Notes under the pieces: generated by a model
Database searches by the model: none
The model's input: the letters and a program-made list of their open reading frames with translations, nothing else
What the model was told of the DNA's origin: nothing
From: a virus
Lineage: Duplodnaviria > Heunggongvirae > Uroviricota > Caudoviricetes
Length of the DNA: 19,974 bases
Direction: 5' to 3' (one strand)
IMG/VR virus record: IMGVR_UViG_2778261458_000009
Location: 1-19,974 of that record
Translations under genes and position numbers: made by a program
In this document: positions 8,470 to 11,721 of the stretch, piece by piece
How the letters are laid out: every line of letters begins with the position of its first letter
Position numbering within the stretch: position 1 is the stretch's first letter

Positions 8470-8792
8470 ACTTTCAGGCCCCTCTCATGTAACCAGTAGG
8501 CTGCACGCAGCCTGGCGTTTTCCTCACCGGCAAGCAGTGAGCGGATAATCCCGACCGCCTCGCTGTCGTCGTCCTTCACCGCGGTATGAAGCGTTATCCC
8601 CCGGGCCACGCCACGCTTTATCGTGATGACGCCTTTTTTCTCCAGTGCGCGAAGATGCTCCACCGCTGCATTCACCGAACGGTATCCCAGCATGGTTGCC
8701 ACCTCCTGATTGGTTGGCGGAAAGCCACGCTCTTTCTGATAAGAAATCAGCATATCCAGCACCTGCTGCTGGCATTGAGTTAACGTCGTCAT
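8466..8792 (-). CDS. LexA N-terminal DNA-binding-domain protein (108 aa, no peptidase domain)
   Basis: …LTQCQQQVLDMLISYQKERGFPPTNQEVATMLGYRSVNAAVEHLRALEKKGVITIKRGVARGITL… parallels the LexA N-terminus as recalled. ATGA overlaps with the Dam and RusA genes. Confidence 0.8.
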   Translation of the reverse strand: MTTLTQCQQQVLDMLISYQKERGFPPTNQEVATMLGYRSVNAAVEHLRALEKKGVITIKRGVARGITLHTAVKDDDSEAVGIIRSLLAGEENARLRAAYWLHERGLKV

Positions 8793-9442
8793 GCCGCCAT
8801 CTCCCTGACCAGTTTTTCCGCCTGCTGGCGAACCTGCGCCAGAAAGGCCTCACCACATGCCTCAAGTTCATCGCGCCCGATGTAGCTGATTGCCGGTCCC
8901 TTCCAGGTCTTGTCGAAAACAGCAATAGCACCAGCGAAGAAAGCGCCTGTCGGCACCTGCTTCTCGTCCTTCGGGATAAACCAGGCAGGCAGTTCAAAAC
9001 CAATACGCCCGCGAATAAAAGCAATATGGTCCGCATCTTCCGGCCACCACACTTCGCTGGTGGCAGCTTTGATCAGGAAAACATAGCGCCCGCCCTTATC
9101 ACGCATGGCACTGGCATGTTTCATGATGTAACGCATGCCGGTGATGTATTGCCCCTCATGCTGACTGGCGCGGCTGTATGGGGGATTACCAAAGGCAGCA
9201 CCTTTAAGCTCCGCAAGACGTTCTGACCAGTCATGCGCCAGCGCGTTGTCTTCCGCCGTGTAATACGCGGCACATTTGGCGTTATCACCGTCAGTGAACA
9301 GATCCAGAACAAACGGACCAAACAAGGTGTTAATTCCCCAGAAAATGTTGTCCGGCGTGCGCCACTGATCGCCCACTTCCTTCAGTTCATGGGCTGGTTT
9401 GTTCCGCAGTTCTACCAGCGCCTGGCAATATTTATTACTCAT
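8789..9442 (-). CDS. Phage DNA N6-adenine methyltransferase (Dam family, 217 aa)
   Basis: NPPY motif (AFGNPPYS). Position within the early-right operon. Confidence 0.8.
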   Translation of the reverse strand: MSNKYCQALVELRNKPAHELKEVGDQWRTPDNIFWGINTLFGPFVLDLFTDGDNAKCAAYYTAEDNALAHDWSERLAELKGAAFGNPPYSRASQHEGQYITGMRYIMKHASAMRDKGGRYVFLIKAATSEVWWPEDADHIAFIRGRIGFELPAWFIPKDEKQVPTGAFFAGAIAVFDKTWKGPAISYIGRDELEACGEAFLAQVRQQAEKLVREMAA

Positions 9443-9534
9443 TAAGCCCCCACGTAAAAAGCATCCGCAATGTCTCCGGAAGTACAGCCCGGATGGGCTT
9501 CAATGAATTTCTGAACTTCATTCAAAAGACTCAT
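9442..9534 (-). CDS. Small ORF (30 aa: MSLLNEVQKFIEAHPGCTSGDIADAFYVGA) translationally coupled between the O-like and Dam genes
   Basis: ATG 2 nt after the O-like stop (TGATCATGA). Its TAA overlaps the Dam ATG (TAATG). Hand-translated; below the ORF-track cutoff. Confidence 0.35.
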   Translation of the reverse strand: MSLLNEVQKFIEAHPGCTSGDIADAFYVGA

Positions 9535-9536
9535 GA

Positions 9537-10355
9537 TCACCCCCTGAATCCTGCCGGGATCTGGCTGTAGTCCACGTTGTCGTAACTGGCTTTGAAGTAC
9601 GGGTCCTCGCGTCTGGCTGCAGATACCGCAGGAACTTCCCAGGATTCTTCGAAATGACGATCCGGACCAAAGAACGTGACAGCCTGTTTCACAAATTGTG
9701 TACCGCTATTGCCCATCGCAGATACCCAGCCCGCGTAGCGTTTCACACCTTCCAGCATGGTTTCGGGGTTTACCCCCTCGTTCAAACGGGCTTTCCAGGC
9801 TTTGAAGGCTGCTGATTTTGAATTGCCACCAGCACGTTTGGGATATGCCAGCCATGCCTGCTCAAACTCCGGAGAGTATTCCGGTCGGTTTGAACGAACT
9901 CGCACAGACTCATCAGCAGATGCACCAACAGCTATTGGTTCATTGACTGATTCTTTGACTGGTTCAAAAGAGTGACTGGTTCTGGGTGAATCTCCTGCAC
10001 TACCCCCTGGTGCAACTCCTGCACTACCTGGTGAATTTGCTGCACCAGATAGTGAATTATTTGCACTACCCCCTAGTGAATCTCCTGCACCATCCAGATG
10101 AAGGAGATAGATATTACTTGAGTTACCTTTTTCACCTTTCCGGGTGACTTTTTTTACCAGCCCGGACTCACAAAGGGCCGCAATATGATTCATCACAGAA
10201 CGTTTGCTAATCTCGCACTGGTCAGCAATATGCTGGTAGCTGGGCCAGCACTCACCCTGATCGCTGGCATTATCAGCCAGCTTGATCAGAACCAGTTTTC
10301 GCAATGGATTACCCACTCGAATTTTCATCGCTTTAACCATCAGCTCCATACTCAT
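9537..10355 (-). CDS. Replication initiator, O-like (272 aa): N-terminal wHTH, Gly/Ala/Ser linker, conserved phage C-terminal domain
   Basis: N-terminal HTH-like segment, low-complexity linker encoded by tandem DNA repeats, position after cII/Rha as in lambdoid replication modules. Confidence 0.7.
   Translation of the reverse strand: MSMELMVKAMKIRVGNPLRKLVLIKLADNASDQGECWPSYQHIADQCEISKRSVMNHIAALCESGLVKKVTRKGEKGNSSNIYLLHLDGAGDSLGGSANNSLSGAANSPGSAGVAPGGSAGDSPRTSHSFEPVKESVNEPIAVGASADESVRVRSNRPEYSPEFEQAWLAYPKRAGGNSKSAAFKAWKARLNEGVNPETMLEGVKRYAGWVSAMGNSGTQFVKQAVTFFGPDRHFEESWEVPAVSAARREDPYFKASYDNVDYSQIPAGFRG
9985..10095. repeat. Five tandem ~21-24 bp imperfect direct repeats (approx. GTGAATCTCCTGCACTACCCCCT) inside the O-like gene, followed by an AT-rich stretch; candidate origin iterons
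   Basis: Repeats read directly at 9985-10008, 10009-10029, 10030-10051, 10052-10074 and 10075-10095. Lambda ori iterons likewise lie within gene O. Confidence 0.5.
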
Positions 10356-10576
10356 GCTGCACCTCCGAGATGCTTCATGTTTTTTCCGGAGCGAAAGGCT
10401 ATAAGCGGCATACTGACGCGGTAATTACGGCCCAGCGGTTCACAAATCACCTTCTGACATTCACGGTCAACCAGGCTAACACGTAGAACATGCCCTGCAG
10501 GTGTGGTGTACCACTGACCCGGACGAGGACAACGGAAAGTCTGATTGGTAAACCGTTTGAAAATATTCCGGATCAT
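10352..10576 (-). CDS. Hypothetical protein (74 aa)
   Basis: ATGA overlaps on both sides (with the Rha-domain gene stop and the O-like gene start). Confidence 0.5.
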   Translation of the reverse strand: MIRNIFKRFTNQTFRCPRPGQWYTTPAGHVLRVSLVDRECQKVICEPLGRNYRVSMPLIAFRSGKNMKHLGGAA

Positions 10577-11721
10577 TTGCGCCCCCTTACCTCTGAAGGG
10601 TTCAGCGACAAATTTATGAGGCAGGCCAGCGCCGAAGCATCATTAATATAGTCATACAAGCTAACAGCCAGCGGAGATTCGTCTTTTGCCAACATAGGAT
10701 AAAGCTGCTGCAGCCAGACCTGATGAATTGATGAAATGTAGGAATAGAGAACGCTGGCGTTATGTGCAACGTCGCTCGGTACAGGGGGTTTTGAAAGCTG
10801 TTTCTCCATCTGGTTAAAGGCATTGATATATGCCTCTTTGAACTGGGCAGCACGTTTACCCGTGAAACCCATAGCAAGAAACGCAAAGCCGTCGCGGGTT
10901 ATTTGATAGCAAGGTAGTTTGCGGCCTGATGCGTCGATGTACTCACTGAGCTGAAAATTCAGCTCAGTAAATTCGGCAGAGCATTCAAGAGACGCAATTT
11001 TTTGAATGACATTTTTGTGTTGTTTGCCGAAATAACTAGCAACAGCCAGAGAAGAAGTAACAACTTTGTCTGCAATAATGCAAAGTTCAGGTTGTACTAA
11101 GGCAGGGATCGTAGCCATGATGGCAGCCTCCGTATGCAATGGATAACTTCCACCACCGGAAACGCCAATTTCGCTGGTGGTGAACTGAGCAGGGTTGGCG
11201 TAACCGGCGCATACGGAAACCGGCGCACCTTTCGGTGCCCCCACCCAGCCCACCATAATTTGGGTATAGCTGAGTTGTAGCAACAAAAAAGACGCTAACG
11301 CGCCAATTGTCGCCGTATGCAATTCCAGGACGCCAATCCCGGCACCCGCTTTATAAGGTGCCTGAACAGTGTAACGTCCCGGAATGGCAGAATCAATGTG
11401 CTGGTGGTCCTTCACACTCAACAAAATCACGCCTGAATTTCCACAAAGGACTAAAGCACTCATGCGGGTAGTCTTTGCGAAGATAGATAACGCGCTGTGT
11501 TTCTGGTTCCCAACGAATAACATGAACATAAAGCCCTCTTCCGTCACGAAACCAGCGGTTAAGTTCCTGCACAACTCGCCCCCCACAGTCAGGTAAAGTT
11601 CTCTGTGGTTACTTACAGCCAGGTGATTTGGTAATCTGCATTCATGCCGTAACAACAGGTGTTCAGAGACGCTGACCACCAGCTGTTGCGACAAACGGTT
11701 ATTTGCCGTTAAACTGTTCAT
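10573..11721 (-). CDS. Rha-domain protein: 382-aa ORF with the Rha domain in the C-terminal 182 aa; a strong internal start at 11116-11118 could give a 182-aa Rha protein
   Basis: …FGKQHKNVIQKI…YQITRDGFAFLAMGFTGKRAAQFKEAYINAFNQM… matches the Rha signature. The 5' ATG at 11719-11721 overlaps the cII-like stop (ATGA). The internal ATG is preceded by GGAGG. Confidence 0.65.
   Translation of the reverse strand: MNSLTANNRLSQQLVVSVSEHLLLRHECRLPNHLAVSNHRELYLTVGGELCRNLTAGFVTEEGFMFMLFVGNQKHSALSIFAKTTRMSALVLCGNSGVILLSVKDHQHIDSAIPGRYTVQAPYKAGAGIGVLELHTATIGALASFLLLQLSYTQIMVGWVGAPKGAPVSVCAGYANPAQFTTSEIGVSGGGSYPLHTEAAIMATIPALVQPELCIIADKVVTSSLAVASYFGKQHKNVIQKIASLECSAEFTELNFQLSEYIDASGRKLPCYQITRDGFAFLAMGFTGKRAAQFKEAYINAFNQMEKQLSKPPVPSDVAHNASVLYSYISSIHQVWLQQLYPMLAKDESPLAVSLYDYINDASALACLINLSLNPSEVRGRK

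Follow-up and report, generated by a model that had tools for sequence, protein, structure and literature searches.

The window, a stretch of 19,974 nucleotides of viral DNA, carries on its minus strand a gene for a replication initiator of 272 amino acids. Within this gene lie an array of five short dyad-symmetric boxes, an AT-rich tract and a 37-bp element, listed here in gene sense (the direction of the minus strand):

9537..10355, minus strand: replication-initiator gene, 272 aa (open reading frame and translation; HTH_36; phrog_270)
10097..10140, minus strand: AT-rich tract, the least GC-rich sequence locally, which codes for the wing of the winged helix (KGEKGNSSNIYLLHLD)
10076..10090, minus strand: Box 1, the first in gene sense, GTGCAGGAGATTCAC, an exact match to the pattern GTGMANNNNNTKCAC
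10052..10066, minus strand: Box 2, GTGCAAATAATTCAC, an exact pattern match
10031..10045, minus strand: Box 3, GTGCAGCAAATTCAC, an exact pattern match
10010..10024, minus strand: Box 4, GTGCAGGAGTTGCAC, that is GTGCA-GGAGT-TGCAC, a perfect 5+5 inverted repeat
9986..10000, minus strand: Box 5, GTGCAGGAGATTCAC, which adjoins the 37-bp element without a gap
9949..9985, minus strand: invariant 37-bp element, CCAGAACCAGTCACTCTTTTGAACCAGTCAAAGAATC, directly after the last box in gene sense, encoding P-R-T-S-H-S-F-E-P-V-K-E
9936..9984, minus strand: 12-nt periodic core GAAYCAGTCA(nn), present as AGAACCAGTCAC, GAACCAGTCAAA, GAATCAGTCAAT and GAACCAATAGCT, inside and just past the 37-bp element

The initiator gene and its surroundings

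The genes of the neighbourhood encode, in order, a CI-like repressor, a CII-family (Phage_CP76) regulator, Rha/Ash, a 74-aa ORF product, the initiator, Dam, a protein with a LexA DNA-binding domain (LexA-DBD), RusA and KilA-N, and this is the early-right operon of a lambdoid prophage. Over the region spanning Rha, the 74-aa ORF, the initiator and Dam, the window shares 96-99% identity with phages mEp460 (gp43), SfV (orf39, annotated as 'replication protein') and cdtI (orf46), and with several Stx phages including Stx2a_WGPS2. The last of these is the type phage of the Eru6 replication region, which is recognised by the succession of a Rha protein and an HTH_36 protein; the 2022 survey that set up this scheme classified genes only, described no iterons or origin, and stated that nothing is known of how the replication proteins of Eru phages work (PMC8951638). 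Our literature search, which did not extend to the SfV genome paper, found no earlier description of these iterons or of an SfV/Eru6 origin.

Two details of the neighbourhood differ or recur among these phages. Where mEp460 and SfV carry a 162-aa PerC-like gene (SfV orf40; phrog_1324, 'transcriptional activator'), the window has a deletion, seen as the gap between the initiator and dam (9443-9536). The 74-aa ORF (10352-10576, minus strand), a member of phrog_1153 with unknown function and no Pfam match, overlaps the start codon of the initiator by 4 nt, and the same pairing of ORF and initiator is found in mEp460, SfV, cdtI and E. coli prophage loci L165-L169.

The initiator begins with a winged helix (aa 1-88), continues with a disordered linker (aa ~89-156) and ends in a helical 'replisome-organizer/YdaU-like' domain (aa ~157-272). 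This division is mirrored in an AlphaFold model, in which aa 1-88 have pLDDT values of 77-91, aa 91-156 have values of 29-40, and a small helical domain lies at the C-terminus. Pfam assigns HTH_36 (E 1.8e-11) and a weak DnaD_N match, and the best-fitting PHROG is phrog_270, 'replication initiation protein' (E 1.8e-88); aa 146-249 also match phrog_1701, 'DnaD-like helicase loader', and the C-terminal part further matches 'primosomal protein' PHROGs. The initial annotation had called the gene 'O-like', a label that otherwise appears only in PHROG family names. The gene is indeed a replication gene in the position of lambda O, but membership in the lambda O protein family was rejected: the domain is HTH_36, Pfam gave no match to Phage_rep_O (PF04492) at E up to 0.01, and BLASTP against lambda O gave only spurious short matches. 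In the PDB we found no sequence relative of the initiator, and a Foldseek search of the PDB returned generic winged-helix matches (E about 1e-2) without a specific initiator family. The family itself is large, with 5,410 protein clusters matching at E up to 1e-5. Some database proteins join its N-terminal part to RusA, Dam or PerC domains (P0025, P0027, P0041, P0047-P0050 and P0078); these fusions appear to be deletion chimeras in prophages, and they suggest that the region decays frequently.

Next to the initiator in the window (8789-11721) there is no helicase-loader or helicase gene, the next genes being those for Dam, the LexA-DBD protein and RusA. Among ten relative loci tested, however, seven have a gene of the lambda-P family (L109 and L125, in Erwinia and Shewanella) or an IstB/DnaC-like gene (L118, L122, L085, L113 and L134, in Pseudomonas, Xenorhabdus, Enterobacter and Marinobacter) directly after the initiator. 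In the 41-kb circular Klebsiella record pKPTCM2-4, the initiator is followed by a DnaC-like ATP-binding protein and then by a replicative helicase. Because of these neighbours, we conclude that the family fills the 'O' slot of O-P type modules. Members also occur on circular, non-mobilizable 'plasmid' records of 38-46 kb from Salmonella, Klebsiella, Shewanella, Microbulbifer, Arsenophonus, Edwardsiella and Piscirickettsia. These records look like phage genomes or phage-plasmids, and are compatible with autonomous replication, though no proof of it. No DnaA boxes occur near the array; the window has two matches, both distant from it and no more than chance would give.

The box array and its conservation as DNA

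Tandem Repeats Finder detected a period-24 repeat at 9986-10090 (4.6 copies, 64% matches, score 77). Read on the coding strand, the array consists of five units of 18-24 nt, GGTGCAGGAGATTCACTAGGG / GGTAGTGCAAATAATTCACTATCT / GGTGCAGCAAATTCACCA / GGTAGTGCAGGAGTTGCACCAGGG / GGTAGTGCAGGAGATTCACCCAGA, whose starts are spaced 24/21/21/24 nt apart in gene sense and which encode AGDSLG, GSANNSLS, GAANSP, GSAGVAPG and GSAGDSPR, respectively. At the core of each unit is the 15-bp dyad box GTGMANNNNNTKCAC, i.e., GTG(C/A)A-N5-T(G/T)CAC. In the whole window there are exactly five exact matches to this pattern, starting at 9986, 10010, 10031, 10052 and 10076, and none elsewhere. Shuffled versions of the window are expected to contain 0.09 matches, and five or more were seen in none of 200 shuffles; these figures are descriptive, since the pattern was taken from the same repeats, whose independent test is provided by related loci. 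The tandem direct repeats of about 21-24 bp encoding a Gly/Ala/Ser linker, as noted initially, were thus borne out by Tandem Repeats Finder and the five exact boxes.

Within the gene, the boxes span nt 266-370. They code for aa 89-124, which follow the winged helix, precede the C-terminal helices (aa 162-214) and make up the first part of the disordered linker (pLDDT 29-40 in the AlphaFold model). The array folds better than shuffled sequences (z -2.2 and -3.0), a result that the dyads give trivially. An RNA element was rejected as an explanation: Rfam produced only a spurious mir-875 match over 9000-11000 (22 bits, where the gathering score is 84), and the 37-bp element does not fold significantly as a single strand (z -0.1 and +0.7).

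To obtain relatives we scanned one genome per species, which yielded 80 loci from Enterobacterales, Pseudomonas, Marinomonas, Shewanella, Aeromonas, Xenorhabdus and others; this diversity came from genome contigs, whereas a protein scan of viral contigs gave only near-identical E. coli phages. All 80 loci have short repeats directly after the winged helix. The box type of the window is present in 43 of them (in Enterobacteria, Pseudomonas, Shewanella, Marinomonas and Aeromonas), with 195 boxes in total, at 3-7 per locus and in the same place. Spacing between boxes is 21-24 bp in 142 of 152 intervals, and no box was found outside the array in the 23.5 kb of these 43 genes.

What is conserved in the boxes is the DNA and not the peptide. 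They are read in two frames (164 and 31 boxes) and in both orientations (73 forward, 34 reverse and 88 symmetric). The resulting peptides, such as SAGDSP, VQEIHQ, SESPAP and GAPPAP, are unrelated. For example, one box is read as GGT AGT GCA GGA GAT TCA C (G-S-A-G-D-S), in a shifted frame as GTA GTG CAG GAG ATT CAC CAG (V-V-Q-E-I-H-Q), and inverted as AGT GAA TCT CCT GCA C (S-E-S-P-A-P). In the same loci, the half-sites of the boxes are constant from E. coli to Pseudomonas, while synonymous codons of conserved winged-helix residues are scrambled. Because these neighbouring synonymous sites are scrambled, the constancy of the boxes reflects selection at the DNA level and not recent common descent. 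By this sequence comparison, the boxes are under purifying selection as DNA, and the linker, which is disordered in the model, can tolerate any peptide. The spacers of the array look like a further DNA-level feature, judging by their sequence: the one ahead of the last box is usually CAC(C/T)AGGGGGT(A/G)GTG (window 10001-10009 and 10067-10075; loci L084-L163), and its G5 tract is kept across box classes and is inverted to ACCCCCT in some loci, so that it codes for GG or PP.

Other subfamilies of the recognition helix are accompanied by a different dyad box, while the 5-N5-5 architecture, the pitch and the position are unchanged. The pairs of helix and box are:

ISKRSVMNH-type helix: box GTGMA-N5-TKCAC, 43 of 43 loci
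xxRSTVKxH helix: box GGKCR-N5-YGMCC, 13 of 15 loci
xDRSTVRxH helix: box TAGGC-N5-GCCTA or AGCAC, 11 of 12 loci
CSKSAVRxH helix: box TGYCR-N5-YGRCA, 4 of 4 loci
ISKRSVMRH helix (one Erwinia protein): box GTGAC-N5-GTCAC, 1 of 1

This co-variation fits a pair of initiator and iteron, although it could partly reflect linkage, as the two sequences are about 200 bp apart and co-inherited. The initial annotation had proposed that the number of repeats affects specificity; instead, specificity tracks the sequence of the box together with the recognition helix. The dyad symmetry of the boxes suggests that they would be bound by dimers, by analogy with lambda O (PMC5043065). Taken as sequence evidence, these patterns make the boxes almost certainly the initiator's own binding sites.

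The invariant 37-bp element and the AT-rich tract

The element directly after the last box is also conserved at the DNA level. Across about 70 loci from many genera its codons are an invariant choice, CCC AGA ACC AGT CAC TCT TTT GAA CCA GTC AAn GAA, including arginine as the rare codon AGA in 69 of 69 cases, the two serines as AGT (72/72) and TCT (67/67), and glutamate as GAA (71/71). Over offsets -8 to +28, most bases are conserved at a level of at least 0.9 and six positions at 0.5-0.8; directly beyond this stretch, conservation collapses. In 38 of 43 loci, 23 nt separate AGTCACTCT from the start of the last box. When viral contigs were searched with the 37-bp DNA alone, at least 120 loci encoding at least 108 distinct proteins were recovered, all of which belong to this N-terminal family. 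At least eight different types of C-terminal domain begin right after the element. On this sequence evidence, the element is under selection as DNA, and the conserved cassette is the winged helix followed by the boxes and then the 37-bp element, which also marks the junction with the C-terminal module.

The element contains the dyad TTTGA-ACCAG-TCAAA and, in part, the 12-nt periodic core, which Tandem Repeats Finder reports as a period of 12 at 9939-9966 and which repeat families D2 and D7 span. With a GC content of 0.42 in the window, it is moderately AT-rich. The AT-rich tract has a GC content of 0.33-0.38 (0.37-0.38 over 10080-10159), and the lowest 40-nt stretch of the gene, at 0.325, is centred near 10120. 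Among 71 loci, the lowest-GC stretch of the gene is the 37-bp element in 36 and the upstream flank that codes for the wing in 27, the window being one of the latter. However, synonymous codons within the AT-rich tract vary freely in 68 relative loci, with no constraint at the DNA level. The AT-rich segment that was initially placed after the repeats is therefore real as a low-GC region, but in gene sense it lies upstream of the boxes, as the gene is on the minus strand, and it is not conserved as DNA. Similarly, the interval initially proposed for the origin, 9985-10140, takes in the boxes and the AT-rich tract but leaves out the DNA-conserved element at 9949-9985.

We regard the 37-bp element as a candidate for the unwinding, helicase-entry or host-factor site of an origin. 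A bolder version of this idea, which we put forward tentatively, is that CCAGAAYCAGTCACTCTTTTGAAYCAGTCAWWGAAYC might be a universal, specificity-independent origin core, common to thousands of prophage replicons of Gammaproteobacteria. Such a core would be a duplex-opening site or a conserved site for a host factor (helicase, primase or nucleoid protein) that is read alike whatever the iteron class or C-terminal domain, and it would also serve as a crossover point for domain shuffling. If this is true, a phage origin would contain, in the 37-bp core, an element for unwinding or loading that is sequence-specific and not merely AT-rich.

A probable origin of replication within the initiator gene

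The lambda-like plan of the array and its genomic context of replication genes lead us to propose that the five boxes are probably iterons for initiator dimers and that, together with the 37-bp element, they form the replication origin of the phage, within the part of the gene that encodes the linker. This proposal rests on sequence comparison and on analogy with lambda. Points that weigh against it are that no AT-rich unwinding region of the classical kind stands out clearly, that the window phage differs from most of the relatives examined in having no loader gene beside the initiator, and that a variant with two boxes is frequent in E. coli prophages. The initial annotation had likewise regarded the region as probably the ori; its iteron reading is strongly supported by the comparison with relatives, while the origin function itself we only infer.

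By analogy with lambda, transcription of the early rightward operon would lead to synthesis of the initiator, dimers of which would fill boxes spaced about two helical turns apart and form a wrapped nucleoprotein complex. Strain in this complex could then open a nearby low-GC stretch, for which the 37-bp element is the better candidate and the AT tract encoding the wing an alternative, and the C-terminal domain would recruit the replicative helicase. Since no gene for a loader or helicase adjoins the initiator, the phage in the window would presumably use DnaB and DnaC of its host, via the YdaU/DnaD-like C-terminal domain.

Several other explanations of these features have to be weighed. The repeats could be nothing more than a low-complexity Gly/Ala/Ser linker that changes by slippage and has no role as DNA, given that the segment does encode a disordered linker rich in G, A, S and P whose length differs by whole repeats among close relatives. 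This explanation is effectively excluded by the occurrence of the same 15-bp box in two frames and both orientations with unrelated peptides, by half-sites that remain constant from E. coli to Pseudomonas where the synonymous sites of the winged helix are randomised, and by the switch of the box sequence along with the recognition helix. It is also conceivable that the initiator binds the boxes, but that they serve only in autoregulation or copy control, as an operator or roadblock, and that the origin is elsewhere in the phage. Initiators that bind iterons often autoregulate (RepR of pIGRK, for instance, binds both the origin iterons and an operator at its own promoter; PMC6854812), and the AT-rich partner element is ambiguous. 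We nonetheless consider an operator unlikely, because the array is located within the coding sequence, 265 nt from its start, and not at a promoter (no promoter-like site was found in 9400-10700, which includes the array), because 3-7 sites at a two-turn pitch, accompanied at a constant distance by an invariant element of low GC, correspond to the plan of the lambda origin and not to that of an operator, and because the cassette travels with helicase-loader genes.

A further alternative concerns the 37-bp element, which might be mainly a patch of homology for exchange of C-terminal domains, i.e., a module boundary, and not a part of the origin. The abrupt loss of conservation after the element and the variety of C-terminal domains that start there are what such a patch would produce. 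However, a recombination patch alone would leave unexplained both the purifying selection on every synonymous site across genera, as with the AGA codon, and the 23-nt register to the last box, so we think it quite improbable that this is the element's main role. The roles of patch and origin are not exclusive of each other.

The closest parallel to the proposed origin is that of lambda, whose ori has four dyad iterons at a pitch of 20/24/23 bp within nt 349-433 of O and, downstream of them in the sense of O, a 40-bp A+T tract (PMC5043065). Like lambda ori, and also the origins of the lambdoid Stx phages 933W and P27, the array has several dyad repeats for the initiator at a pitch of about 20-24 bp within the initiator gene itself, encoded between the N-terminal DNA-binding domain and the C-terminal recruitment domain. 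In both cases, an element of lower GC content (here the only moderately AT-rich 37-bp element) flanks the repeats downstream in gene sense, the number of repeats varies, and the N-terminal domain and the origin (here the probable one) form a specificity cassette. There are also clear differences. The initiator here is an HTH_36 protein without detectable homology to O, its boxes are 15 bp long (5-N5-5) where those of lambda are 18-19 bp, the downstream partner is an invariant sequence of 37 bp with about 42% GC instead of a 40-bp A+T tract, an AT-rich tract precedes the boxes in gene sense, and no P gene follows the initiator in the window phage. The arrangement can thus be viewed, by analogy, as an origin-in-initiator of the lambda type built on a different winged-helix family.

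A second parallel is with the iteron origins of theta plasmids (R6K pi, pSC101 or P1 RepA, and pIGRK/pHW126), in which initiator-specific repeats likewise adjoin a conserved element that is not an iteron. The pIGRK origin, for example, consists of a region conserved in its family (CR) and four 20-bp iterons that are bound by the winged-helix protein RepR (PMC6854812). In contrast to the boxes described here, the iterons of plasmids are located outside the rep gene, usually bind monomers and lack strong dyad symmetry. We found no homology between the initiator and Rep proteins of theta plasmids or of the pIGRK type.

If the proposal is correct, it has several consequences. The initiator family serves SfV, mEp460, cdtI, and the Eru6-type Shiga-toxin and serotype-converting phages, and a probable origin fragment (about 9936-10095) and its protein are now defined for replication assays. 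As the level of Stx-phage replication affects the dose of toxin, the origin is a possible handle on virulence. The rule that links helix to box could serve as a predictor of replication specificity, and of incompatibility between co-resident prophages. Finally, the boxes offer a clean natural case of DNA-level selection overriding protein coding, with one box in three coding contexts.

The number of boxes is not fixed. Lambda has four iterons and Stx phages have six (PMC7466680), and near-identical E. coli phages and prophages of the present family have 2, 4, 5, 8 or 9 boxes, differing by whole units, with five boxes in 75 of 84 loci; the expectation from the initial annotation that repeat number varies among relatives therefore holds. 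Among isolated phages, mEp460 and SfV have five boxes and cdtI has eight. The two-box allele, which encodes a protein of 250 aa (E. coli prophages L165-L167), is widespread, being present on 64 contigs, and the gene order around it otherwise looks intact. Because two iterons plus the AT tract are sufficient for unwinding in vitro (PMC7466680), this two-box variant may, by analogy, not necessarily be dead. One of the two-box prophages (L166) has an IS element inside its KilA-N gene.
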